Part shown: positions 659-19,837 of the stretch, piece by piece
How positions within the stretch are numbered: position 1 is the stretch's first letter
How the letters are laid out: the number at the start of each line of letters is the position of its first letter
DNA from: Aeriscardovia sp.
GTDB taxonomy: Bacteria; Actinomycetota; Actinomycetes; Actinomycetales; Bifidobacteriaceae
Direction: 5' to 3'
Assembly (NCBI GenBank): GCA_017405305.1
Contig: JAFRAT010000018.1
Coordinates: 1,248-25,247 of the forward strand
Length of the DNA: 24,000 bases
Notes under the pieces: generated by a model
The model's database searches: none
What the model was told of the DNA's origin: nothing
The model's input: the letters and a program-made list of their open reading frames with translations, nothing else
Position numbers and translations under genes: made by a program

Positions 659-819
659 GGCAGCGAAGCGCTGAAACAGCTGACACGAACGCTCGGAGGC
701 GCGATCGGACGCAGGCGGTCCAGCCTTGGGACAGTCGGGCACCGAACAGCTGCCAGGTCCGGACAGAGCGGATCCGGGCCGATTCCCGATCGACGGCCAG
801 CAGCCAGCACAGCGCAGAC

Positions 820-885
820 GAAAGCCCCGCGTCCCGTTCCAAGAGACAGGCGATGACCCGCTTGGGAACAGGACACGGGGCTTTC
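820..885. terminator. long imperfect hairpin between convergent genes, probably a bidirectional terminator
   Basis: GAAAGCCCCGCGTCCCGTTCCAAG (820-843) pairs with CTTGGGAACAGGACACGGGGCTTTC (861-885). About 22 bp pair, with 2 mismatches and 1 bulge. AAA/TTT at the stem base gives a short U-run on either strand. It lies between the 658 stop (+) and the 919 stop (-). Confidence 0.55.
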
Positions 886-918
886 AGGTATTCCGGGACG
901 CGGAATCCGCCAGCACCG

Positions 919-8482: not shown

Positions 8483-9300
8483 CGCAGGAAAACGGCGGCG
8501 CGGCGCAGGACGCGACGAAGGAAGCGGCGGACACGGCTCCGGGCGCGGCGGGCGAATCCCGTCCTATCGACGTGGTCTCGCTGTACGCGCACGACATGAA
8601 CATCTACGGCGACTCCGGCAACGTGCTCGTCATCGAGAAGCGGCTGCGGCTCTACGGCTACGAGCCGGTCGTCCACCTGTACAATCCCGGCGACCTTTGG
8701 CCCGAGCACGTCGACCTGGTTCTGGGCGGCGGCGGCCAGGACTCCGGCCAGCGCATCATCCAGAAGGACTTCCTCCAGCGCGGCGGGATCCTACGGCAGT
8801 TAGCGAAGGAAGGCGTGCCAATGCTGATGATCTGCGGCCTGTACCAGCTGTTCGGCAAGTACTTCCAGACCGTTTCCGGCGACCGCATCCCGGGCGTCGG
8901 CGTCTTCGACGCGGTGACCATCGGCAAGAAGGCGCGTCTCATCGGCAACGTCGTGGAACGCAGCCGCGACTTCGGCATCATCGTGGGCTACGAGAACCAT
9001 TCCGGGCAGACCTTCCTCCACGGGGACACGAAGCCGCTGGCGACCGTCTCCAAGGGCCAGGGCAACAACCTCGACGACGGTTTCGAAGGCGCGCGAGTGG
9101 GCAATGTCATCGGCACGTACATGCACGGCTCGCTGCTGCCGAAGAACCCGCGCGTCGCGGACTTCCTCATCGCCCGCGCGGCCGAGCACCGCTACGGCAC
9201 GTTTGAGCCGAGGATGAGCCGCGAGGCCCGCCATGAGCTGGACCTGCTCGACAGAACAGCGCGCGAGGCGAGGGACGTGGCGCAGCAGCGGCCGCGCTGA
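8479..9300 (+). CDS. gatD: lipid II isoglutaminyl synthase glutaminase subunit GatD (CobQ/CobB-type glutamine amidotransferase)
   Basis: 'IDVVSLYAHDMNIYGDSGNVLVI', the nucleophile region 'LMICGLYQLFG', and 'GTYMHGSLLPKNP' are present. The ATG at 8479 overlaps the murT TGA (ATGA). Confidence 0.88.
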   Translation: MTQENGGAAQDATKEAADTAPGAAGESRPIDVVSLYAHDMNIYGDSGNVLVIEKRLRLYGYEPVVHLYNPGDLWPEHVDLVLGGGGQDSGQRIIQKDFLQRGGILRQLAKEGVPMLMICGLYQLFGKYFQTVSGDRIPGVGVFDAVTIGKKARLIGNVVERSRDFGIIVGYENHSGQTFLHGDTKPLATVSKGQGNNLDDGFEGARVGNVIGTYMHGSLLPKNPRVADFLIARAAEHRYGTFEPRMSREARHELDLLDRTAREARDVAQQRPR

Positions 9301-9323
9301 AAGGCTTTTCCAACCATCAACGA

Positions 9324-9741
9324 ACCGAGACGGCGTTGGCTGGAGCAGAGCGACGCGAAAGCAAAGGGAAGGCGGCCGAGCTCGCCGGTCCGCGGGCGGA
9401 CTACGTGACGCGCTGCAACGGCGGCGACAACGCGGAGCGCGCCGCCGTGCCCGACAGCGAAGCGCACGCGCTGCGATCGTTGCCCTCGGGCATCTTCAAC
9501 CCGCGCGCGGCATCGGTGAACGGCAACAGCGCCGGTCGGCCCGCAGGAGCCGACGGGGGAGCTGGCGGCCCCGCTGCGCTGCGGCGAGGAGTTGCGCCCC
9601 TTCGTGGACGATGCCGCGCGTCTGTTCAACCGCGTCCTGGACAACGGCGCCACCATGCTTTTCGAAGGCAGCCAGACCACGTACCCCTTCGTGTCCTCTA
9701 GCAACGCGACGATCTTGTCGCCCGCGCAGGCAGCGGCGTAG
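9324..9741 (+). pseudogene. purA: decayed adenylosuccinate synthetase (purA) relic with a frameshift and large internal deletion
   Basis: Frame 3 (9324-9536) reads 'ALAGAERRESKGKAAELAGPRADYVTRCNGGDNAERAAVPDSEAHALRSLPSGIFNPRAASVNGNSAG'. It is collinear with the PurA N-terminus 'GAQWGDEGKGK...Y.V.R..GG.NAGH......LH.LPSGI.....IGNG'. Frame 1 (9583-9741) reads 'GEELRPFVDDAARLFNRVLDNGATMLFEGSQ-TTYPFVSSSNAT', which matches PurA 'L.PYV.....L......G..VLFEGAQ(GTLLDIDHG)TYPFVTSSN'. The P-loop and NAGH catalytic residues are replaced, and roughly 130 codons are missing in between. Confidence 0.6.
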
Positions 9742-9813
9742 TCCCGGCGCGGGACGCGAGAGCGCCGTCAAGCGGCGGACGGCGCAGAATACGCTCGTGC
9801 TTGTCCCGCCTTA

Positions 9814-9842
9814 TTGACATGCTTCCCACCGCTGCCTAGAAT
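9814..9842 (+). promoter_or_regulatory. near-consensus sigma70-type promoter upstream of the crcB leader
   Basis: TTGACA (9814-9819), an exact 17-nt spacer, then TAGAAT (9837-9842). The predicted TSS is around 9849, giving a leader of about 250 nt before crcB. Confidence 0.55.
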
Positions 9843-9859
9843 CGTTCCCGTCGCGAATC

Positions 9860-9891
9860 GCCGCCGGCCAGGAGCTGGGCGGCTTGTTTTT
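9860..9891 (+). terminator. terminator-like hairpin plus U-run inside the crcB leader
   Basis: GCCGCC(GGC)CAG (9860-9871) pairs with CTGGGCGGC (9875-9883). That is 9 bp with a 3-nt bulge and a GAG loop, followed by TTGTTTTT (9884-9891). It lies only about 10 nt after the predicted TSS and upstream of the riboswitch-like element. Confidence 0.4.
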
Positions 9892-9899
9892 CCACGGAT

Positions 9900-9999
9900 G
9901 GCAATGGGACTTGCCAGTGGCGCCAGGGGCCGGAGAAGCCCGGTGGAACGGCTCTGCGAGCCGCGGGTGCCCGAACCGCAAATCGCTGATAGTCCCTGT
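9900..9999 (+). promoter_or_regulatory. candidate fluoride riboswitch (crcB motif) with an atypical ~58-nt insertion
   Basis: GGCAAUGGGACUUGCC (9900-9915) resembles the crcB-motif P1 hairpin GGCGAUGGUGUUCGCC. In it GGCAA pairs with UUGCC and the loop is UGGGAC. AACCGC (9974-9979) and GCUGAUAGUCCCUGU (9985-9999) resemble the consensus AACCGCC...GCUGAUGAnnCCUnn. The loop GGGAC (9906-9910) is complementary to GUCCC (9992-9996), as required for the pseudoknot. It sits about 100 nt upstream of tandem crcB genes. The consensus was recalled from memory and not scored with a covariance model. Confidence 0.5.
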
Positions 10000-10102
10000 T
10001 GGGAAAGGCATGGGCGCCTGCCTGCCGGGACGAGGATTCCGGTGCCGGCCAGCGTCAACAAGGCTTGTCGGCCCGTCGCCTGCGCCGCGGAAGGGGATAG
10101 GA

Positions 10103-10564
10103 ATGGCGTCGCCATCGCCGAAGCATTCGAAATCGCTCGCCGTCCTGTACGTTTTCCTGGGAGGCATGATCGGCACCGCCTTGCGCGCCGGACTGTGCCT
10201 GTCCCAGCCCAAGAGTTGGAACTGGCCCTGGATCGTGTTCTGCATCAACGTGGGCGGCGCGTTCGTCCTGGGCATCATCAACGCCAGCGTCGGCGCGGAG
10301 AGCGCCAAGCACCCGGCTTCGAAGAACTTCGTCACGTTCCTGGGCACCGGTGTCATGGGCGCGTTCACCACCTACGGCACGTTCATCCACGAGACCGACG
10401 CACGCTTCCTGTCCAGCCTGGGCGGCATCGCCGTCGCCTACGCGCTCGTGAGCGTCGTGCTGGGCGTCCTGGCCGCGGGCCTGGGCATTTGGCTAGGCAA
10501 CATCATGCTCCACGGCACCATCGCCGAAGAAGAGCAGATCGAAACCGAGGAGGTGGACGGATGA
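10103..10564 (+). CDS. crcB: fluoride ion channel CrcB/FEX, subunit 1
   Basis: 153 aa with four hydrophobic helices. 'GGMIGTALR' and 'GVMGAFTTYGTF' are CrcB-like motifs. The ATG at 10103 is preceded by GGAAGGGGA. The longer track ORF from 9884 covers the noncoding leader. Confidence 0.85.
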   Translation: MASPSPKHSKSLAVLYVFLGGMIGTALRAGLCLSQPKSWNWPWIVFCINVGGAFVLGIINASVGAESAKHPASKNFVTFLGTGVMGAFTTYGTFIHETDARFLSSLGGIAVAYALVSVVLGVLAAGLGIWLGNIMLHGTIAEEEQIETEEVDG

Positions 10565-10947
10565 GCCAGCCATGGATCTTCATCCTCGCAGTCGTCGCTG
10601 GCGGCCTGGGGGCCTTATCGCGCTGGTGGCTCGGCGCGCTCGTCAATAACCATGTCCACACGTCGATGCGCTGGGGCACGTTTGTCGTCAACGTGCTCGC
10701 CTGCTTCCTCGACGGCCTGCTGGCCGGTCTGGTCGCGCATTTCCTGGCGGCCTGGACAGGCATGGCCGTGCTCGACTCGATCATCGGCACCGGTTTCCTC
10801 GGCGGCTTCTCCACGTTCTCCACGGCGAGCGTCGAAGGTTTCCAGAACTTCAGGGCCGGCGCGGGCCGTGGCCTGCTGTACGTGGGCGGGATGCTCGTCC
10901 TGTCCATCGGCCTGTGCTTCGCCGGCTATTTCCTCGGCCTGTGCTGA
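10561..10947 (+). CDS. crcB: fluoride ion channel CrcB/FEX, subunit 2
   Basis: 128 aa. 'GGLGALSRW' and 'GFLGGFSTFSTA' are CrcB motifs. An ATGA overlap with crcB-1 suggests a heterodimer pair. Confidence 0.88.
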   Translation: MSQPWIFILAVVAGGLGALSRWWLGALVNNHVHTSMRWGTFVVNVLACFLDGLLAGLVAHFLAAWTGMAVLDSIIGTGFLGGFSTFSTASVEGFQNFRAGAGRGLLYVGGMLVLSIGLCFAGYFLGLC

Positions 10948-10974
10948 AACGAGGCTAGCCAAAGCGATAACCAC

Positions 10975-11032
10975 AAAGGGGCGGCCGCTGCTTTCCGCAA
11001 GACATATCGCGGGAAGCAGCGGCCGCCCCTTT
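10975..11032. terminator. 24-bp stem-loop, bidirectional terminator between crcB and the sirtuin gene
   Basis: AAAGGGGCGGCCGCTGCTTTCCGC (10975-10998) pairs with GCGGGAAGCAGCGGCCGCCCCTTT (11009-11032). There are 23 Watson-Crick pairs plus one G-U, and a 10-nt loop. A/T runs sit at the stem base. A second perfect 11-bp hairpin follows at 11036-11066. Confidence 0.7.
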
Positions 11033-11171
11033 CATGCAGTCGGCGCGCGCTTGCTGCGCCGACTGCGCGCATCAGCGGCGTTGGCCGGGGAATGGCCGCC
11101 CGCGCAGGCACCGACGCGCTAAAACGGGGGTCGCGTCCCTGAAAAAAGCCGCGGATCCCCGCCTCTTCGTC

Positions 11172-11921
11172 TCAGTCGCCGTACTTGTCGATGGTTTCCT
11201 TGACGAGCTTGGGCAGCGCGTCCTGGATCGGTTCGCCGATGAGACGAGTGGCGATGGAATCGTACTCCGTCTCGCCCATGTTCATGATGGTCAGCGGCAC
11301 GCCGGCGTCGACCGCGGCCGGGGCGAGCCAGGCCGCCGGCTGCACGGCCAGCGTCGAACCGATCACCCAGAACTCGTCGGCCTGGCGGACCAGGCGGATG
11401 CTCTTCTCCATCGCGCCTTCGGGCAGAGCCTCGCCGAAGTAGACGACGTCGGTTTTCAGCAGGCCGTTGCACTCGCTGCCGTCGGAAAGCGTGCGGTGGC
11501 AATGCGGGTCCGGCTCCTCGTCGAGGCGCGCCATGATGTCGGCGGTCTGGTACTTCGCGCCGCATTCGAGGCAGTGGCTCGTTCCGATGGTGCCATGCAG
11601 GTTGACGATGACGTCGGAGGAGTTGCCGGCCTTCTCGTGCAGGGCGTCGAAGTTCTGCGTGGCGAGCAGGGTCAGCATGCCGGCCTTTTCGAGGTCGACA
11701 AGCGCCTGATGGGCCGCGCCCGGCTTGGCGGTCCAGACCGGGGATTCCTTCTGCCAGGCCCAGGAGTATTCGCGGTCGGATTCGCTGTTCAGGAAGGCAT
11801 CGATGTCGTAGACCTTCGTCTGTTCCGGATGCTGCGTCCACACGCCTTGCGGGCCGCGGAAGTCCGGGATGCCGGCGGACGTGGAGATGCCTGCTCCGGT
11901 CAGGACGGCGATTTTCCTCAT
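11172..11921 (-). CDS. cobB: NAD-dependent protein deacylase, Sir2 family (CobB-like)
   Basis: 249 aa. 'VLTGAGISTSAGIPDFRGP', 'TQNFDALH', catalytic 'NLHGT', and Zn-site Cys pairs 'CLECG...HCH...ECNG' are present. GAGAGGAAA sits upstream of the ATG. It lies 41 nt downstream of the adenosyltransferase gene on the same strand. Confidence 0.9.
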   Translation of the reverse strand: MRKIAVLTGAGISTSAGIPDFRGPQGVWTQHPEQTKVYDIDAFLNSESDREYSWAWQKESPVWTAKPGAAHQALVDLEKAGMLTLLATQNFDALHEKAGNSSDVIVNLHGTIGTSHCLECGAKYQTADIMARLDEEPDPHCHRTLSDGSECNGLLKTDVVYFGEALPEGAMEKSIRLVRQADEFWVIGSTLAVQPAAWLAPAAVDAGVPLTIMNMGETEYDSIATRLIGEPIQDALPKLVKETIDKYGD

Positions 11922-11962
11922 GTGTTTTCCTCTCTGATGGGATGGACGCGCGCCGGGGTGCC

Positions 11963-12586
11963 TTAGTTCTGCGGCTTGCGGGCGATGGCCTCGCAGGTGC
12001 CGTCGAGGTGATTGGCGTAGCGGGCCATGGCGAACAGGTAGTCGGACAGGCGGTTGACGAACTTGAGGTCCTCCGGGCGCACGCGGCAGGGCTTGGCTTC
12101 GCTGAAGGCCACGCAGGCACGCTCGGCGGCGCGGGCGAGGGTGCGTGCGTAGTGCAGGCGGGCGCCGGTCGGGCTGCCGCCGGGCAGGACGAAGGCCGGG
12201 ATGGTCTCGACGCGGCTCATGAAGCCGTCGATGGCCTGCTCGAGGGCGGTCGTGTCATCGTCGTCGATGAACTCGCAGCCTGGCACGGCGACGTCGGACT
12301 GGACCTGGTAGAACTTCTGCTGGAGTGCGATAAGCGGTTCGCGCAGCTCGGCGCACGCGTCCGATAGCTCGGCGATGACGAGGCCGAGCCAGGACTGGGC
12401 GGCGTCGAGGGAGCCGACGGCCGCGATCTGCGGGTCGGATTTCGAGAGCTTGGTGCCGTCGATCTGGATGCTGGACCCCTTGTCGCCGTGGCGCGTGTAG
12501 ATCTTCGGCCCGTGCGGGGCGTTTTTGACGAGGCTCTTGGCCGCGGCGGTCATCGTTTCGCGCGGTTCCCTGACGTTTTCAGCCAT
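11963..12586 (-). CDS. pduO: ATP:cob(I)alamin adenosyltransferase, PduO type
   Basis: 207 aa. 'KIYTRHGDKGSS' matches the PduO-type N-terminal ATP-binding motif (KIYTKTGDKGxT). 'DPQIAAVGSLDAAQSWLG' and 'FVLPGGSPTGARLHYARTLARAAER' are also typical. The SD AGGAAGG sits 7 nt upstream of the ATG at 12586. Confidence 0.88.
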   Translation of the reverse strand: MAENVREPRETMTAAAKSLVKNAPHGPKIYTRHGDKGSSIQIDGTKLSKSDPQIAAVGSLDAAQSWLGLVIAELSDACAELREPLIALQQKFYQVQSDVAVPGCEFIDDDDTTALEQAIDGFMSRVETIPAFVLPGGSPTGARLHYARTLARAAERACVAFSEAKPCRVRPEDLKFVNRLSDYLFAMARYANHLDGTCEAIARKPQN

Positions 12587-12724
12587 CGATAGGCCTTCCT
12601 TTCTGGACTTAGACGCGGCGGGACGCGCGGGGAAGCCTGCTGGATCGGGCGCGCCCCGTCCGAGGCAATTATCAGCCGCGGCCGCTACATGTGCCGGATC
12701 GGGCGTTTGCCGCGTGCGGCGTTG

Positions 12725-13498
12725 TCACTTCCTTTCTCCGTGGGGAAGGGCGGAACCGGCGCTGTCGCCGTCGCCCGCGGCGGCGTTGCGGGCGCGCACG
12801 CGGCCGACGAGGTCGATGGACCACGGGATGCTGACGAGCAGCAGGATGCCGGTGCACACGCCGCTGAGGGTGTCTCCGGGCAAGCCGGCGGCGATGATGG
12901 ACCAGAACATCCCCCGGTTCCAGGTGCGCATGTACAGGAAGCTGTACATGTTCAGGATGAAGCCGTAGATCCATCCCGAGCAGACGCCGGCGACGAGCAT
13001 CCACCAGCGGTTGCGGCTGAAGCGCGTGCCGCTGATCCAGCCGGCGATAGCGCCGAGCAGGCCCCAGGCGAGCATCTCCCAGGGGGTCCAGGAACCCTGT
13101 CCCAGCCAGAAGTTCGAAATGAACGGGACAAGCGCGCCCGCGAGGAAGCCCGGTTCGGCCCCCAGAGCGAGGCCGGCAAGGATGACAAGCCAGCTGGTGA
13201 ACTGCAGGCCCTGGATCGGGATGCGCACGAAGCGCAGCACACAGGCGAGGGCGACAAGGGCGACGACGATGCCGATGACGGCAGAGCTCATCGCGCGGCG
13301 TTCCAGCGTCCTGAACGCGACAGCCAGGACAACCGGGACGGCGATGACGGCCCAGCCGAAGGCGTCGTCCGCGTTCGTCGCCATCAGCACGGCGAGGGCG
13401 ACAAGGGCCGCTGCGATGACGACGCCCAGGGCGATGGCGAAGCCGCGGCCGCTGGACGCGCTCGGCGCCGGTGTGTCGGTATGCTGTGTGTCACTCAT
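12725..13498 (-). CDS. ECF transporter substrate-specific (S) component, substrate unassigned
   Basis: This is the C-terminal 257 codons of track ORF 12725..15289. The ATG at 13498 overlaps the ATPase stop (ATGA). It has about six hydrophobic helices, for example 'FAIALGVVIAAALVALAVLMA', 'AVIGIVVALVALACVL', 'WLVILAGLALGAEPGFLAGALVPFISNFWLGQGSWTPWEMLAWGLLGAIAGW'. It sits in the operon position of an S component, after T and A-A'. Confidence 0.75.
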   Translation of the reverse strand: MSDTQHTDTPAPSASSGRGFAIALGVVIAAALVALAVLMATNADDAFGWAVIAVPVVLAVAFRTLERRAMSSAVIGIVVALVALACVLRFVRIPIQGLQFTSWLVILAGLALGAEPGFLAGALVPFISNFWLGQGSWTPWEMLAWGLLGAIAGWISGTRFSRNRWWMLVAGVCSGWIYGFILNMYSFLYMRTWNRGMFWSIIAAGLPGDTLSGVCTGILLLVSIPWSIDLVGRVRARNAAAGDGDSAGSALPHGERK

Positions 13499-15297
13499 GG
13501 TGTCTCCTTTGCTGGGTGTGTGATCGATGTCGGCAGATGGGGAAGCGCTCGGCGCGCGATGGCGTCGTCGAGGGTGAGGACGGAGGGGTCGCGTACGGCG
13601 AAAAGGCGGTGCATCGGCGTCGTGGAGAACTCCTGGCCGGCCACGACCGAGCGCGGGTCGGCGTCGGCGACGAGACGGCCGGCCAGGACCACGAGGGCGC
13701 GGGTGGCGTAGCGTACGCAGAAGTCCGGGTCGTGCGAGCTGAAGAGGACGAGACCGCCCTCGCGGCCCGCGCGCTGGAGGCGTTCGCCGACATGGGCGGC
13801 GGCCACGGCGTCGAGGCCCTGCGTCGGCTCGTCGAGCAGCAGGACGGGCTTGCGCCGCGCGGCGACGAGGTCGAAGGCTTGCAGCTGCTGCTGGCCCAGG
13901 CTCTGATCGAGCGGGTCGGGCACGGCGAGGACGTCGGCGTGGCCAGCAAGGATCGTTTCCCGTGAAACAGTTCCATGTGGGGTTTTTCGGCGTCGGCGCG
14001 GGACGCCGCGAACCGCGCCGCCGCTCAGTGCGGCGCCCATCGCCAGGTTGAGGATCGGCCGCACGTCCTGCGGCAAGTAGGCGACGAAATCCTGGCTGCG
14101 CGACGGCGGCACGGTCTTCATCGCGTCCCGTTTGCGCCAACGGACGCTGCCGAACTGCGGGCGCAGGAACCCCGCGAGCAAATCGAGGATGGTGGATTTG
14201 CCGCAGCCGCTCTGGCCCATGAGGGCGATGACGTCCCCGTAGCGGGCGTCGAAAGCGATGTCGGAGACAGCGAAACCGCGTTGGCCGGGGTAGGCGTAGG
14301 ACAGTCCGCCGACCCTCAGGGCCGGAGCGGAAAAGAAGCCAGCGGAGGCAGGAGCCGTCGCGCTGGCGGCGCGGCCCTGGGCATCGGAAGTGGCTGCGCT
14401 GGCGGCGCGCGTGGAAGCGGCCGGCGTCCGCGGCGCCGTTTCCGCCAGATGCCGCTGGCCCAGCGCGATGGTCAAAGGCAGCGGCGTGCTCGCGCCGCTG
14501 CCCGTCATTAGGAAGAACCGCTGAACGTCCGGGACGAGCTCGCGCGAATGGTCGGCATCGGCGGACCACAGCGAACGCAAGGCGTTCTCGGGCGCGCCGT
14601 CGGCGAGGAGCCTGCCGTGGTCCAGGGCCGCGATGTGCGTGGCGATGTCGCAGCAGCCCTCGAGATGGTGCTCCGTCATGACGATGGTCAGGCCGAAATC
14701 GCGGTTGAGACGGCGCAGCAGGTCCAGCGTGGCGCGGCGGCTGACCGAGTCGAGGCTGGCGGTCGGTTCGTCGAGCAGCAGCAGGCGCGGTCTTGTCGAC
14801 AGGGCGGCCCCCAGCGCGGCGAGCTGCGCCTGGCCCTCGGAAAGATGGTCGATGGGTTCGTCCAGCAGATGGGCCAGACCCAGAAAGCCGACGATGTCGG
14901 TGGCGGCCAGCTCCTGGTCCGCCGTGCCCGCCAAGCGGATCTCCAGCTCCTGGCGCAGCGTTCCCGCGGCGATGCCCTCGCGCGGCCGCTGCTGGACCTG
15001 GGCGACGAGATGGTCGCGATGCTCGGCGCGCAGCTGCGCGGGGGTCTGTCCCCAAAGCGTGACGGTGCCGCGGCGCGTGCCCACGGGGTTCCGATGAAGC
15101 GACAGATGGCGCAGCAGCGTCGTCTTCCCTGATCCGGTGAGGCCGGCGACGACGAGGAAGTCCCCGTCGGGGACGCTCAGGCTGACATCCGAAAGGATCG
15201 GGCGTTTCCCGGCGGAATCGGCTTCCGCGCCGAGGACCGCGCCGCTCGGCGCGGCGAACGAGAACGAGAGATGCTCTACGCGCGCGCACATGCCCAT
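13495..15297 (-). CDS. ecfA: ECF transporter fused double ATPase (EcfA-EcfA')
   Basis: Two ABC nucleotide-binding domains. NBD1 has 'GLTGSGKTTLL', 'LSEGQ', 'LLLLDEPTASLD'. NBD2 has 'GQSGCGKSTIL', 'LLLDEPTQGLD', 'SSHD'. I chose the ATG at 15297, preceded by GGAAGGAGGGG. The track start at 15381 is less likely. There is a 22-nt overlap with ecfT. Confidence 0.88.
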   Translation of the reverse strand: MGMCARVEHLSFSFAAPSGAVLGAEADSAGKRPILSDVSLSVPDGDFLVVAGLTGSGKTTLLRHLSLHRNPVGTRRGTVTLWGQTPAQLRAEHRDHLVAQVQQRPREGIAAGTLRQELEIRLAGTADQELAATDIVGFLGLAHLLDEPIDHLSEGQAQLAALGAALSTRPRLLLLDEPTASLDSVSRRATLDLLRRLNRDFGLTIVMTEHHLEGCCDIATHIAALDHGRLLADGAPENALRSLWSADADHSRELVPDVQRFFLMTGSGASTPLPLTIALGQRHLAETAPRTPAASTRAASAATSDAQGRAASATAPASAGFFSAPALRVGGLSYAYPGQRGFAVSDIAFDARYGDVIALMGQSGCGKSTILDLLAGFLRPQFGSVRWRKRDAMKTVPPSRSQDFVAYLPQDVRPILNLAMGAALSGGAVRGVPRRRRKTPHGTVSRETILAGHADVLAVPDPLDQSLGQQQLQAFDLVAARRKPVLLLDEPTQGLDAVAAAHVGERLQRAGREGGLVLFSSHDPDFCVRYATRALVVLAGRLVADADPRSVVAGQEFSTTPMHRLFAVRDPSVLTLDDAIARRALPHLPTSITHPAKETP

Positions 15298-16232
15298 AGG
15301 CGTTCCCCTCCTTCCAGCAGGTACGGAGAAACCGTCAGGACGGCGGTGGCCGCGTAGGTCTCCCAGCGGCTGGCGCCCCACGGGTGGGCGAGGGCCGCGG
15401 CGAAACAGGCGGTCGTCAGGACCAGGAAGACCAGGGCGGCCGGCGCGCGGGACGGGCGATGCGGCGCGGTGCGCGCGGTCTGTCTGTCCGACCGCTTCAT
15501 GGCCGCCAGGATGCTGGCGATGGCCGTCGTGCGGGCGGCCGAATCGTTGAGCGCCGTCGACAGCAGCGCGTACAGCAGCGCGCGCAGGCGGCGGGTCCAG
15601 CTGGCCCGGCTGTCGGCGCGGAGGAACGCGCGCGCGGAAAGCTTGTCCGGCGTCGCGCCTGTATCCCGCGTCGCGTCAGAGGCGTCCGCGCTCATGCCCG
15701 CCGTGGTCCCCGAGGACGCCAGCCGATGCTCCACGGCGAGCAGCGTCGCGGACTGGCGTGCCAGGCGGGACGCCGAACCCAAGGACATCTGCGTGACGAG
15801 CACGGTCCGCGGCAGCGCGCGCGACAGGATCCGTCCCGTCCTTGAACCCATCAGCGAGCCGAGGGTGACGACGCGCGACTGCGTCAAAGCCACCGTCGTG
15901 ATGGTGACGAACGCCAGACCGAGGCATACGCCCGTGTTCAGGCCCTGCCAGGTGGTGACGATCCGGCCCCAGCGGAACAGGACCGTCGGGCCGTAGTAAT
16001 CGAAGAAAAGCGTGACAAAGGCGATGACCAGGCCCATCGGAGCCGACCAGGCCAGGGATTTCGCCAGCTTGCGGGCCGAGCCGAAGACCAGCTCGAGGAC
16101 CGCGGTCAGCGCCAGCAGCTCGAGTTGAACGCCGACGAAGAAGCTCGTTCCCGCCAGCAGCAGGACGAGCAGGAAGTACCACAGCGACCCAAAGACGGAA
16201 AGACGCTGGAAAGCGAAAGAGCGGATGGGCAT
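15276..16232 (-). CDS. ecfT: ECF transporter transmembrane (T) component, CbiQ/EcfT family
   Basis: 318 aa polytopic protein with Arg-rich coupling-helix-like segments ('ALPRTVLVTQMSLGSASRLARQS', 'SWTRRLRALL'). A strong SD (GGAGGAGGAAG) abuts the ATG at 16232. The call rests mainly on operon context with the double ATPase. Confidence 0.75.
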   Translation of the reverse strand: MPIRSFAFQRLSVFGSLWYFLLVLLLAGTSFFVGVQLELLALTAVLELVFGSARKLAKSLAWSAPMGLVIAFVTLFFDYYGPTVLFRWGRIVTTWQGLNTGVCLGLAFVTITTVALTQSRVVTLGSLMGSRTGRILSRALPRTVLVTQMSLGSASRLARQSATLLAVEHRLASSGTTAGMSADASDATRDTGATPDKLSARAFLRADSRASWTRRLRALLYALLSTALNDSAARTTAIASILAAMKRSDRQTARTAPHRPSRAPAALVFLVLTTACFAAALAHPWGASRWETYAATAVLTVSPYLLEGGERLWACARA

Positions 16233-16277
16233 CTTCCTCCTCCAGCGTCAGGGCGTCGCGCGCCGTGTTTCGGATCC

Positions 16278-16323
16278 CTTGTTCCGGCCTGGCGGGAGGC
16301 CGTGTCCGCCAGGCCGGAACAAG
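16278..16323 (-). other. perfect 18-bp intercistronic stem-loop between nrdJ and ecfT (no U-tract)
   Basis: CTTGTTCCGGCCTGGCGG (16278-16295) and CCGCCAGGCCGGAACAAG (16306-16323) flank a 10-nt loop. It starts 6 nt after the nrdJ stop. No T-run follows on either strand. Confidence 0.8.
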
Positions 16324-16328
16324 CCGGT

Positions 16329-18581
16329 TCAGCGGACGGGGCAGGCTCCGCTGGCGCAATCCGCCAAACCCACGAGAGTCAAATCCTCCTCCCCCTCCTC
16401 TTTCTTGTTGTGGAGTTGGGCGAACAGGAGCCGGGGATCCCCGTGGAGAGCGGTTTCCATTTCCCGATACCTCTCGATGCTGATCGTTTCCTTGGGCATC
16501 TGCGAATAGCCGCCATCCACATAGCCAAGCAAAGAAGTGGACTTGACGTGTCCCGCGTAAGCCGCCAGGATGGTCGGCAACTGCTCCTCCTCGGATTTCT
16601 GGAACGTGACCGTGCAGGACACCGCGTTGTCGGACCAGTGTTCCTGGAGGAACGCCTGGGTGGCAAGCTGTTCTTCGGCGGACACCGTGCCGGCGGACGC
16701 GAACCTGGGGGAATCCCATCCCATGGCTTCGACCGGAAATTCGACGACCATCGTGTGAGCCGTGTACACGTCCGGTTCGATGTGGTAGCCGCAGGCGTTT
16801 AAGGCTTTGAGCAGGGGGTCGTCGTCCTGGAAGCGGATGCGTTGAATGAAGTGGCCGGCCCACTGGAAGTGCATGCCCTCGGAGACGCCTGCCAGCTTGG
16901 CGACCGTGCCGGAGGGTTTGACGGTCGTATGCTTCAGGCTCGGCTGGCAGCCCAGCTCCGCGGAGTACTCGTTGTCAGCTTCAACAACCGCCTGGTACAT
17001 GCCATCCAGTGCGCGGGCGATCTCCTGGTCGTAGATTGGCTGGCGGCGGACGGTGCCGTCCGTGGCAGTCTCCTGTTTCCAGCCGGTTATGGCCCTGCGG
17101 TTGAAACGGGAGAGGAACCAGTCCTGGATTCCCGACAGGGACACGCCGATACGCCGATTCCTGGACACGACTTTTCGGGTGACCTCCCAATCGTAGGAGC
17201 CGAACGTCACGCGTTTGGCGTAACGGACCGCCAATCCCAAAACCTGGTTGAGATCCCAGCCTTGTTCCTGGGCGATGGAGGGGAAGATTTCGAACAGGTT
17301 GCACGGCTCCCCGTTCTCCAAAGTGATTTCCCCGCACGGGTTGGTGCCCTCCGCCCGCGGGTCCGCATCCTCCCTGTAGCCGTCTGCCAGCCGCCCGTAG
17401 TGGCGGGAGAGTTCGAGGTCGACGATGCCCGGCTCCCCGTTGACGATAACCTCGTGGGCGACTTCTTCGTACTGCTCAGGACGGCCGTCGACGACGACGC
17501 TGTTGTTGGACGCCCACCGGTGGTGGGCGAGCTGCTCCTGGTCCTGCTTCATGGTGCGGAATCCCTCGTCGTCCCAGTCGCCTAAAGCGAGTTCCGCGCT
17601 GCGGCGCACGTTGCCGGCCACGACGGCTTTACCGATAAGGTTGCCGATATCGGTGCAGTCCACGCTGGACAAACGGTCTCCGGCCTTTTGGTCGAGGATC
17701 CGGTTCACGTCCCCCAGCATTTCCACCAAGGGGGCCGGCCCGGAAGCGGTCCCGCCGAAACCATGGATGCGCGCACCACGGGGACGCACATCGCTCACGT
17801 CAATCACCACGCGCCGGATGCCATTCGGGAAGTAGTCGAAATGGCTGTCGATAAGGCCGGCCAGGGCGCGCACCCACCCCTCACGGGAATCGGCGACCCG
17901 GTAATACCAGCAGCCGTCCTGCTTTTCTGGCTCCCCGTTGTTTTCGACCCATTGCGCCCGGTCGAGGGCGCCGGCCCGCCGGGTTTCCTCCGCGCTGGAG
18001 TTAGCGGAATCCACGAGACAAACGAGTTCGATTCTGCGGGCGACCTGTGGCATTTGGGTGACGTTCCCGTGGGTGACGGAGAAGCCCACGCCCCCGCCTT
18101 TCATCAGCTCGTCGAACATGAACGCCCAAGGCATGGACGCGGCCGGCTCATCCGGCTGAAGATAGGAGGGGACGATCGCGCTCTCCCCATAGGATTGGGG
18201 GCGGATAGCAATGAACCAGCAGTTGTTGAGCGCGTCCCCATGCGCCCGCTGGTAGGGGGTGCCGGACACCCACAGGTTACGGCCCGAGGGCGTGGCAGCC
18301 AAACCGTATATCAGGCGATACAGGTTTTCGGCTTCCTCCGTCAGTTCCTCCACGACACTAGCATCCGGCTGGTCGTGGAGTCGGGGGTCGAGGTTGATGT
18401 TGCCTTCGACGACGCGTTTGACGGTTTCCGCCCACTCCTCCGTGCGCTCCTGGTCTTCCAGCCAGCGCGCGTAGGTGCGCTTGTAGGTCACCCATCCCAA
18501 GGGACCCCAATGCGGGGACAGCGTGGCGGTTTGGTGGGCGATGAAACCATCGGAAAGCGTGATAAGGGAATCCAAAGCCAT
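16329..18581 (-). CDS. nrdJ: adenosylcobalamin-dependent ribonucleoside-triphosphate reductase (monomeric class II RNR, L. leichmannii type)
   Basis: 750 aa, collinear with RTPR as remembered. Matching segments include 'PHWGPLGWVTYKRTYARWL', 'VKRVVEGNINLDPRL', 'ATPSGRNLWVSGT', 'LNNCWFIAIRPQ', 'HGFGGTASGP', 'VAGNVRRSAELALG', the thiyl-Cys motif 'TNPCGEITLENGEPCNLFE', and the C-terminal redox pair 'CASGACPVR'. The start at 18581 (MALDS...) was chosen because the upstream 32 codons of the track ORF are AT-rich and carry NrdR boxes. Confidence 0.93.
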   Translation of the reverse strand: MALDSLITLSDGFIAHQTATLSPHWGPLGWVTYKRTYARWLEDQERTEEWAETVKRVVEGNINLDPRLHDQPDASVVEELTEEAENLYRLIYGLAATPSGRNLWVSGTPYQRAHGDALNNCWFIAIRPQSYGESAIVPSYLQPDEPAASMPWAFMFDELMKGGGVGFSVTHGNVTQMPQVARRIELVCLVDSANSSAEETRRAGALDRAQWVENNGEPEKQDGCWYYRVADSREGWVRALAGLIDSHFDYFPNGIRRVVIDVSDVRPRGARIHGFGGTASGPAPLVEMLGDVNRILDQKAGDRLSSVDCTDIGNLIGKAVVAGNVRRSAELALGDWDDEGFRTMKQDQEQLAHHRWASNNSVVVDGRPEQYEEVAHEVIVNGEPGIVDLELSRHYGRLADGYREDADPRAEGTNPCGEITLENGEPCNLFEIFPSIAQEQGWDLNQVLGLAVRYAKRVTFGSYDWEVTRKVVSRNRRIGVSLSGIQDWFLSRFNRRAITGWKQETATDGTVRRQPIYDQEIARALDGMYQAVVEADNEYSAELGCQPSLKHTTVKPSGTVAKLAGVSEGMHFQWAGHFIQRIRFQDDDPLLKALNACGYHIEPDVYTAHTMVVEFPVEAMGWDSPRFASAGTVSAEEQLATQAFLQEHWSDNAVSCTVTFQKSEEEQLPTILAAYAGHVKSTSLLGYVDGGYSQMPKETISIERYREMETALHGDPRLLFAQLHNKKEEGEEDLTLVGLADCASGACPVR

Positions 18582-18607
18582 GGGAGCGACTTTAGGCGGC
18601 GGCGTGG

Positions 18608-18671
18608 AAAACACCAAATGAAAAACACTAAATGTGGTACAAATCTTTTCTCGAAACACCATATCTTGTGT
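18608..18671 (-). promoter_or_regulatory. NrdR operator boxes in the nrdJ promoter/leader
   Basis: Box 1 at 18656-18671 reads ACACAAGATATGGTGT on the minus strand, against the NrdR consensus acaCwAtATaTwGtgt. Box 2 at 18625-18640 reads GTACCACATTTAGTGT, with a good right half. Centres are 31 bp apart, which is the typical tandem NrdR spacing. A third half-site, CATTTGGTGT, lies at about 18611-18620. The region is AT-rich within GC-rich DNA. Confidence 0.65.
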
Positions 18672-18844
18672 CTGCAATCGGCGGCCAGCCGTGTCGACTT
18701 TTGGTTAACGCGCTCAGCGGCAGGCGCGTGATTGAGCGGTTTCGCGTTTTCCGGTCCGCTGCCCCGTGCGCCGTTTTTTTGGGGGAGGGAAGATTTCCGG
18801 TCCAGCGGGCGTGCCAGGCGTGTCGCGCATGAGGATGGCATGGG

Positions 18845-19837
18845 ATGCGCGAAGCGGCTGGCACGCGGCTCCAGGCGGGGACCCATACTGGAATGGTGAC
18901 GGACAAGAACAGGGACAAGAAAAACACGGCCGACGGGCGGCTCGTGCTGGCCGCCACGCCGATCGGCAACACGGGCGACGCTTCGGCCCGTCTGACGGAG
19001 CTGCTGCGCATGGCCGACATCGTGGCCGCCGAGGACACGCGCCGCCTGTACGATCTGGCCAACCGCCTCGGCGTGCGGGTCGGCGGGAACGTGGTGGCGT
19101 ACCACGACCACAACGAGCATTTGAAGGTCGATGGCCTGCTGGACGGCGTGGAGCGGGGCGCCGTTGTGCTCGTCGTCTCCGACGCGGGCATGCCGACCAT
19201 CAACGATCCGGGACTGGCCATCGTGCGCCGCGCCATCGAACGCGGGCTGCCCGTCACCTGCGCGCCGGGGCCGTCCGCTGTGCTCGACGCTTTGGCGCTG
19301 TCTGGCCTGCCGACGGACCGGTTCTGCTTCGAGGGCTTCGTGCCGCGCAAGCAATCGGACCGCGTCAGGCGCCTGCGTTCGCTGCTGACCGAGACGCGCA
19401 CCATCGTGTTCTACGAGACGCCGCAGCGCATCGCCCGGACCATGGACGCTTTCGCCGAGGTGTTTCCGCCGTCGCGGCCGATGGTTCTGGCGCGCGAGCT
19501 GACGAAAGATTACGAAGAGGTGCGGCGGTCCACCGTGGCTGCTCTGCGCCAGTCGGTCATCGACGATCCGCCACGCGGAGAAATCGTTCTGGTCCTCCAG
19601 GGCGCGTCCGAGGAGGAGCTGCGCGCCGCGGCCGCGTCGGGCGCCGACGGCGGGGAAGCGTTCGACGTGGACCGTTTGGCACGCGAGGCCGACGATTTGT
19701 CCCGCCGGGGCGGCCTGAAGCCGAAAGACGCCATCGCCGCGACCGTGCAGGCGCATCCATACGCCGACGGCTCCCTGGCCAATAGGAAGGATGTGTACGC
19801 GGCCATGCTGCGCCTGCGGCAAAAAGCAGTGGGCTAG
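18845..19837 (+). CDS. rsmI: 16S rRNA (cytidine1402-2'-O)-methyltransferase RsmI
   Basis: 'LVLAATPIGNTGDASARL', 'IVAAEDTR', 'VLVVSDAGMPTINDPG', 'PGPSAVLDALALSGLPTDRFCFEGF', 'IVFYETPQR' are present. An alternative start is the ATG at 18893. Confidence 0.9.
   Translation: MREAAGTRLQAGTHTGMVTDKNRDKKNTADGRLVLAATPIGNTGDASARLTELLRMADIVAAEDTRRLYDLANRLGVRVGGNVVAYHDHNEHLKVDGLLDGVERGAVVLVVSDAGMPTINDPGLAIVRRAIERGLPVTCAPGPSAVLDALALSGLPTDRFCFEGFVPRKQSDRVRRLRSLLTETRTIVFYETPQRIARTMDAFAEVFPPSRPMVLARELTKDYEEVRRSTVAALRQSVIDDPPRGEIVLVLQGASEEELRAAAASGADGGEAFDVDRLAREADDLSRRGGLKPKDAIAATVQAHPYADGSLANRKDVYAAMLRLRQKAVG

Follow-up and report, generated by a model that had tools for sequence, protein, structure and literature searches.

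In Lactobacillus delbrueckii, the gene cbrT stands in a cluster ordered nrdJ-cbrS-cbrT-pduO, for whose products the logic of import, adenosylation and use has been argued (Santos et al., 2018; PMC5997447). CbrT is the experimentally characterized S component of the vitamin B12 transporter of that organism, ECF-CbrT (structure 6FNP), where ECF denotes energy-coupling factor (PMC5997447). Elsewhere, a "predicted cobalamin ECF transporter" has been named, in which CbrU is a duplicated ATPase, CbrV the transmembrane component, and CbrT the S component (Rodionov et al., 2019; PMC6593275 supplement). The subject here is a cluster of six genes in a 24,000-nt stretch (the window) of Aeriscardovia sp. 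contig JAFRAT010000018.1 (GCA_017405305.1). In order, these encode an adenosylcobalamin (AdoCbl)-dependent ribonucleoside-triphosphate reductase (RTPR; nrdJ), the T component, the fused duplicated ATPase (A-A') and the S component of an ECF transporter, an adenosyltransferase (pduO), and a deacylase (sir2).

This cluster is genuine and coherent. The explanation that best covers the whole, and that we consider probable, is that it forms a self-contained unit for the salvage and use of vitamin B12, gated by NrdR and with read-through into the transporter genes. The importer family, CbrTUV, is of course already known, as is the nrdJ-transporter-pduO layout from lactobacilli. What is new is modest. 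It comprises the occurrence in Bifidobacteriaceae, the presence of a full dedicated energizing module inside an nrdJ...pduO operon, the loss of a partner protein of the DUF4430 family, and, in comparison with the family's other group I members, the replacement of riboswitch control by NrdR boxes.

The cluster beside its described relatives

The six minus-strand genes run head to tail, where a first-pass annotation of this DNA had placed them, and independent gene calls on an identical metagenome contig (L001) agree for all six. The junctions also stood exactly as described (a 96-nt gap, a 22-nt overlap, a 4-nt ATGA overlap, a 138-nt gap, and a 41-nt gap), and neither set of calls places an opposing gene inside the run. 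The two ABC_tran domains, the PF12822 S component, the RTPR-type nrdJ, PduO, and SIR2 were all recovered by Pfam and NCBIfam scans; the T protein alone, searched as a single sequence, matches nothing in either. The earlier statement that the window carries no gene for corrin-ring biosynthesis was likewise upheld, the TP_methylase-family gene at 18845-19837 being RsmI (TIGR00096, 183 bits).

NrdJ scores 738 bits against the RTPR model TIGR02505 (cut-off 340), carries the Pfam domains RNR_Alpha and RNR-II_ins_dom, and is 58% identical to the RTPR of L. helveticus, with the TNPCGEI motif and the C-terminal CxxxxC pair both included. PduO scores 135 bits against TIGR00636 (PduO_Nterm; cut-off 108) and is 44% identical to the PduO of the L. 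helveticus cluster.

The closest genome matches are Aeriscardovia metagenome-assembled genomes (MAGs) from the ruminant abomasum. Eleven species-level genomes (nine Aeriscardovia, plus Bifidobacterium aquikefiri and B. mongoliense) share the order nrdJ-T-AA'-S-pduO, with identity dropping across them to 42% for S and to 23% for T. In all Aeriscardovia, the cluster is flanked by rsmI/metG and crcB and has sir2 as its last gene. In B. aquikefiri and B. mongoliense, the chromosomal context is different and the five-gene core stands without sir2. One locus (L003) suggested a strain whose S gene is truncated; this was rejected, as what lies at its AA'/S junction is a 100-N scaffold gap.

The S component of the transporter matches PF12822 (ECF_trnsprt) with 42 bits (cut-off 30.7). 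Searched as a single sequence, this protein has a sole match among the PDB sequences, 6FNP_A, at E=2.3e-4, and it is 35% identical to L. helveticus CbrT over 112 aa (E=3e-13). A profile of 55 family members, headed by the window protein, matches 6FNP_A at E=1.8e-28 over residues 4-179 of 182. The runner-up S component for this profile, 4HZU_S, stands at 6.5e-4, 24 orders of magnitude worse than CbrT. No YkoE-type model (Pfam PF09819 or NCBIfam) is matched at E<=0.01, nor any other specific S-family model. The only NCBIfam model that responds at all, one for a folate-family S component, reaches 27.5 bits where the cut-off is 60, and the match was set aside as generic S-component similarity; 44 of the 55 family members match this model weakly too.

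A profile (A3) built from 17 orthologues and homologues of the T protein matches the EcfT structures 5D3M_D, 4HZU_T, and 4HUQ_T with E values of about 3-5e-13 over some 225 positions, which argues that T is a divergent EcfT; four T-family members weakly match CbiQ. The best NCBIfam model for the A-A' protein is ECF_ATPase_2 (174 bits), and the Walker A and Walker B motifs, read from the translation, are intact in both halves. Checked against the known families, S falls with CbrT, not YkoE, and T with EcfT. The T, fused ATPase, and S proteins correspond to CbrV, CbrU, and CbrT, so that the transporter is predicted to be of the CbrTUV type. The first-pass annotation had proposed a cobalamin ECF system of an uncharacterized type. 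This does not stand, since the gene set already has a name and CbrT has been characterized; no new transporter type or mechanism is present here.

An AF2 (AlphaFold2) model of the S protein shows the S-component fold, with a predicted local distance difference test score (pLDDT) of 86.3 and a predicted template-modelling (TM) score, pTM, of 0.82. Two extra N-terminal helices are predicted at residues 14-67 (pLDDT 65-80), before the six-helix core. These are common to most group I family members, and are not found in the 174-182-aa Lactobacillus CbrT.

Set beside the Lactobacillus cluster, the window has the same RTPR-type nrdJ in first place, the same pduO at the end, and between them a CbrT-family S component, all on one strand. 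It has also, in common with L. helveticus (locus L087), an NrdR box upstream and no cobalamin riboswitch. The L. helveticus box is a clean predicted one, CCACAAGATATTGTGG, which precedes nrdJ by 85 nt, and a search of the locus for cobalamin riboswitches gave nothing at E<=1. The differences lie in the transporter. The Lactobacillus CbrT is a group II S component of 174-182 aa that uses a shared EcfAA'T module and is paired with CbrS, a DUF4430 protein. The window, in contrast, has an S component of 257 aa, its own T and duplicated ATPase, no DUF4430 gene, and sir2 after pduO. Credit for the Lactobacillus cluster is said to belong to Rodionov's work of 2009 alongside that of Santos and colleagues.

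Cofactor uptake behind NrdR boxes is thus not peculiar to the window, because the L. helveticus cluster is wired alike. The first-pass annotation had called such wiring an unusual regulatory logic, a description that must be withdrawn, as the published Lactobacillus cluster shares the layout, and L. helveticus has the box, lacks the riboswitch, and has junctions of 0-20 nt. L. helveticus alone carries this comparison among lactobacilli, because two other loci add nothing to it: in L. acidipiscis (L092), cbrT is present but no nrdJ can be recognized, Loigolactobacillus backii (L093) has only cbrS-cbrT, and neither has a riboswitch. No paper explicitly stating that NrdR boxes stand over genes for cofactor uptake was found in the searchable literature.

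With CbrTUV systems, the window shares the set of subunits and the order and adjacency of T, AA', and S, as these occur in 66 of 69 family loci outside Bifidobacteriaceae. Typical CbrTUV operons have a cobalamin riboswitch and genes for DUF4430 proteins or surface-anchored B12 binders upstream, and have no nrdJ or pduO. Here, the module stands between nrdJ and pduO, behind NrdR boxes, without riboswitch or binder. The arrangement may be described, from its sequence, as the Lactobacillus nrdJ-cbrS-cbrT-pduO cluster plus the CbrU/CbrV energizing module of Clostridia and Coriobacteriia, minus CbrS. The YkoEDC system, which handles thiamine or hydroxymethylpyrimidine (HMP), is also a group I ECF transporter with dedicated T and duplicated ATPase genes; the window differs from it in that its S component matches PF12822 and CbrT and no YkoE-type model.

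Table 1. Features of the cluster in the window, with the genes of the L. helveticus locus (L087) for comparison.
Feature	Position	Strand	Remarks
NrdR box 1, predicted	18656..18671	-	ACACAAGATATGGTGT; 90 nt upstream of nrdJ ATG; one mismatch to pattern
NrdR box 2, predicted	18625..18640	-	GTACCACATTTAGTGT; 31 bp downstream of box 1; three mismatches
nrdJ, monomeric AdoCbl-dependent ribonucleoside-triphosphate reductase (RTPR type)	16329..18581	-	750 aa; TIGR02505
Perfect 18-bp G+C-rich hairpin without U-tract	16278..16323	-	starts 5 nt after nrdJ stop
ECF T component, CbrV-like, divergent	15276..16232	-	318 aa; preceded by strong Shine-Dalgarno sequence GGAGGAGG
Duplicated ECF ATPase A-A', CbrU-like	13495..15297	-	600 aa; two ABC_tran domains; 22-nt overlap with T
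ECF S component, CbrT (cobalamin) family	12725..13498	-	257 aa; PF12822; ATGA overlap with A-A'
S-pduO spacer	12587..12724	-	138 nt; no terminator; GATAAT -10-like hexamer conserved in L007; no Rfam match
pduO, PduO-type ATP:cob(I)alamin adenosyltransferase	11963..12586	-	207 aa; PF01923, E=1e-44; TIGR00636
sir2, Sir2/CobB-family NAD-dependent deacylase	11172..11921	-	249 aa; PF02146 SIR2, E=9e-43
Long perfect hairpin between convergent sir2 and crcB	10975..11032		likely bidirectional terminator ending the unit
L. helveticus nrdJ (RTPR)			744 aa; 20 nt to cbrS
L. helveticus cbrS (DUF4430)			136 aa; 1 nt to cbrT
L. helveticus cbrT			174 aa; 0 nt to pduO
L. helveticus pduO			186 aa; last gene

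Expression behind the NrdR boxes

When the whole window is scanned with the NrdR pattern ACACWANATNTWGTGT, allowing up to three mismatches, two matches are found, both upstream of nrdJ, against 0.22 expected by chance. Box pairs with the 31-bp spacing are also found in four relatives (L008, L010, L014, L017). When the sequences preceding nrdJ in the window, in four bifidobacterial relatives, and in L. helveticus are aligned, nothing but the two box positions stands out as a conserved island. The box pair reported by the first-pass annotation is therefore confirmed and is kept in relatives. Its failure to find a cobalamin riboswitch was also sound, as Rfam gives none at E<=1 in the whole window, and there is none in the 11 orthologous loci.

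Tandem 16-bp palindromic boxes about 31 bp apart, over the promoter region of nrdJ, resemble those of an NrdR regulon. The difference from the usual regulon is that the unit here, like that of Lactobacillus, probably reaches beyond the subunits of a ribonucleotide reductase to genes for cofactor uptake and activation.

In the mechanism that we propose, the group I CbrTUV-type transporter would import cobalamin, and probably cobinamide-type corrinoids as well. PduO would adenosylate the reduced cofactor, and the RTPR-type NrdJ would use AdoCbl to make deoxyribonucleoside triphosphates (dNTPs). This path from corrinoid import through adenosylation to the reductase had been put forward in the first pass, and gains support from the CbrT-family S component and from the five-gene core in 11 species. 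The two NrdR boxes would overlap the promoter, so that nrdJ would be repressed when the dATP/ATP status signals enough dNTPs. The transporter genes would most likely be expressed by read-through of the hairpin that follows nrdJ, an arrangement that would yield much NrdJ and little transporter from one NrdR-gated promoter. The pduO and sir2 genes would be served by read-through from upstream, by a weak internal promoter, or by both.

The case for a single unit is made by the tight T/AA' and AA'/S overlaps and by a run in which neither a terminator with a U-tract nor a consensus promoter is seen. Only after sir2 is there a very strong hairpin that resembles a terminator. There, the sir2-crcB intergenic region (10950-11175) folds with a minimum free energy of -136 kcal/mol (z=-6.9) into several long perfect hairpins, more than one terminator needs. 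From this we infer that the cluster genes are probably co-transcribed in the window species, from one NrdR-gated promoter with read-through that is graded, and that pduO-sir2 may have a secondary promoter. NrdR would then control the genes downstream of nrdJ as well.

The first-pass annotation had stated that no hairpin with a U-tract interrupts the run. This is literally true, but it missed the 18-bp hairpin, lacking a U-tract, that stands directly after nrdJ. The nrdJ-T spacer folds at -51.6 kcal/mol (z=-3.3), and the arms of the hairpin are found nowhere else. The hairpin bears on read-through despite having no U-tract, and might possibly act as an attenuator or as a stabilizer of the 3' end. 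Hairpins recur in this spacer in L007, L008, L010, and L014, and there is none where nrdJ and T overlap. A weak Rfam match to mir-942 at these coordinates is nothing other than the hairpin itself.

Several observations weigh against the unit as proposed. The direct similarity between S and CbrT, given above, is weak. The 20 best PDB matches of the S model in Foldseek are all S components, with target-normalized TM scores up to 0.74, and these were FolT, ThiT, RibU, BioY, and PanT, not CbrT, so that the fold gives no discrimination between substrates. No open reading frame (ORF) in the window or in L001-L017 matches a custom hidden Markov model (HMM) of DUF4430, which sets the cluster apart from most operons of the family. 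No nrdR gene lies in the window. The hairpin after nrdJ might terminate or attenuate transcription, and the S-pduO spacer could hold a promoter of its own.

These last points lead to the alternative that survives best, although we think it unlikely. Here, NrdR would control nrdJ only, the hairpin would terminate, and T-AA'-S and pduO-sir2 would have promoters of their own, constitutive or otherwise regulated. If this were true, B12 uptake would not be wired to a nucleotide-pool sensor. The position of so strong a hairpin, 5 nt past the nrdJ stop, speaks for this, as do the strong Shine-Dalgarno sequence that T has for itself, the GATAAT hexamer that the S-pduO spacer shares with L007, and the spacers of about 300 nt that precede pduO in six relatives. 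However, the hairpin has no U-tract, and across species neither its sequence nor its presence is conserved. No TANNNT-like -10 element lies in the 45 nt that separate it from the start of T, and a promoter scan of 10900-19000 found nothing. Further, four relatives (L012, L013, L015, L016) have an ATGA overlap of nrdJ and T, which forces co-transcription of the two genes there, and the L. helveticus junctions measure 0-20 nt. In L009 and L011, the S-pduO spacer has a short CCGG hairpin followed by T6 that was considered as a terminator; it has only 4-5 bp, was missed by the scan, and is not relied upon.

A broader reading suggests itself, which we offer tentatively, rating its chances at somewhat under even. 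Where NrdJ is the sole or dominant client for B12, uptake and adenosylation would be governed by demand, through NrdR and dATP/ATP, rather than by supply, through a riboswitch. The importer would have moved from riboswitch to NrdR control upon its capture into an nrdJ...pduO operon, the Bifidobacteriaceae version having captured the full CbrV/CbrU module. The lineages concerned may be Aeriscardovia, a few Bifidobacterium species, and the L. delbrueckii group. Such a swap from riboswitch to NrdR was not found stated in the searchable literature.

One transporter family offers a clean natural comparison between two regimes: riboswitch plus DUF4430 binders in Clostridia and Coriobacteriia, and an NrdR-boxed nrdJ operon in Lactobacillus and Bifidobacteriaceae. 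This makes a modest but testable point of demand-driven versus supply-driven cofactor uptake. The cluster also extends to Bifidobacteriaceae a family whose B12 uptake is grounded in experiment. Aeriscardovia, B. aquikefiri, and B. mongoliense are, on this account, likely scavengers of B12 (or cobinamide), whose DNA synthesis would depend on a vitamin made by the community, and such scavenging would matter for cross-feeding in the abomasum of ruminants and in niches of fermented milk.

The place of sir2

The first-pass annotation had counted Sir2 as part of the module, and this does not hold, as the clusters of B. aquikefiri and B. mongoliense do not contain sir2, which is found elsewhere in Bifidobacterium genomes. 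In Aeriscardovia, it is probably co-transcribed with pduO as a lineage-specific neighbour. Because it is conserved family-wide and placed elsewhere in Bifidobacterium, it is best seen as a housekeeping gene, which in Aeriscardovia came to lie downstream of pduO.

One could, of course, still suppose that Sir2 is a functional member of the module, which would deacylate RTPR, PduO, or the transporter, or would act like CobB in corrinoid salvage. In Salmonella, CobB acts in lower-ligand activation during corrinoid salvage and is linked with CobT. The adjacency of pduO and sir2 in all 10 Aeriscardovia loci would fit such a role; in six species of this genus, the end of pduO overlaps or directly adjoins the start of sir2, and the gap here is 41 nt. 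Against this, Sir2 shows 70-80% identity across Bifidobacteriaceae, most of which do not have the cluster. The gene lies beside an iron ABC transporter in B. aquikefiri and beside NUDIX/FHA genes in B. primatium. Conversely, the five-gene cluster does without sir2 in B. aquikefiri and B. mongoliense, as does the Lactobacillus cluster. We regard a functional role for Sir2 in the module as improbable.

Substrate, wider family, and neighbouring elements

An exhaustive search with the S-family profile yields about 1,200 representatives at E<=1e-10; the counts of gene context that follow come from the 80 best loci. Outside Bifidobacteriaceae lie 69 of these 80, in Clostridia, Coriobacteriia, Thermoleophilia, some Bacteroidota, and one archaeon. 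The ATPase gene stands directly upstream of S in 66 of the 69 and is duplicated in 64. Neither nrdJ nor pduO is nearby in any of the 69.

The first-pass annotation had held that ECF genes occurring without nrdJ and pduO in most relatives would count against its reading. Formally, they do so occur; the corrinoid substrate is backed nonetheless. In fact, these loci strengthen the substrate assignment, because they carry B12 riboswitches and genes for DUF4430 B12 binders. Of 22 loci sampled, six (L052, L051, L039, L043, L018, L020) have an upstream cobalamin or AdoCbl-II riboswitch on the same strand. A DUF4430 protein is encoded just upstream of T in 43 of the 56 loci having at least 4.5 kb of upstream sequence, often joined by a large protein, anchored by S-layer homology (SLH) or CWB2 domains, with a match to DUF4430 or Cobalamin_bind. 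With the custom HMM, DUF4430 matches appear in 47 of the 69 loci and in the Lactobacillus cbrS genes. DUF4430 is the C-terminal domain of transcobalamins, which bind B12 (PMC4350170).

A corrinoid substrate for the ECF module is thus well supported as a prediction. That the transporter might instead carry a non-corrinoid (for example, a folate-like compound, an HMP/thiamine precursor, or a nucleoside), with nrdJ and pduO adjacent by coincidence, is very improbable: the folate-family match of S and of most family members is weak, and FolT structures do head the Foldseek list, but the family profile prefers CbrT by 24 orders of magnitude over other solved S components, S matches neither YkoE/PF09819 nor another specific S family, family operons carry cobalamin riboswitches and DUF4430/Cobalamin_bind proteins, and the synteny with nrdJ and pduO is held over 11 species in two chromosomal contexts.

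The wider family offers some observations of its own. In Coriobacteriia, giant DUF4430 ORFs of about 1,800-2,170 aa (L025 119-6622, L060 338-5719, L076 56-5554, L069 5-6127, L024 1427-6844) stand immediately upstream of the genes for a DUF4430 lipoprotein and for CbrV-CbrU-CbrT; Clostridia (L051, L043) have smaller versions with SLH or CWB2 anchors. From their sequences, the giant and anchored proteins would appear to be ones with which Gram-positive gut bacteria capture B12 at the cell surface. In a Thermoleophilia MAG (L018), a second, very strong cobalamin riboswitch (10793-10975, plus strand, 117 bits) lies directly downstream of S, the other being at 1216-1413, which suggests that a further B12-regulated operon abuts the transporter. 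Many family members show an apparent fusion of duplicated ATPase and S, of some 770-890 aa with the S domain C-terminal (L051 6795-9257, L039 5253-7583). Proteins of 700-890 aa are numerous among the matches of the profile search; such fusions, here read from gene calls only, are unusual for ECF transporters.

Other elements of the window lie outside the cluster. At 818-887 (minus strand) there is a weak Rfam match to the mycobacterial F6 small RNA (32.4 bits against a gathering threshold of 46, E=0.025). Between gatD and a fluoride-riboswitch-like element lie about 600 nt (9300-9890) in which no gene is called on the identical contig. The fluoride-riboswitch-like element itself occupies 9891-10005 (plus strand), upstream of crcB genes at 10103-10564 and 10561-10947 on the same strand, which are identified as CrcB by NCBIfam below the curated cut-offs. 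The element scores 23 bits (E=0.019) against an Rfam gathering threshold of 34, while at the orthologous position L008 reaches 35.8 bits and L012 reaches 30. It probably carries an insertion, because it spans 115 nt against a model of 64 nt.

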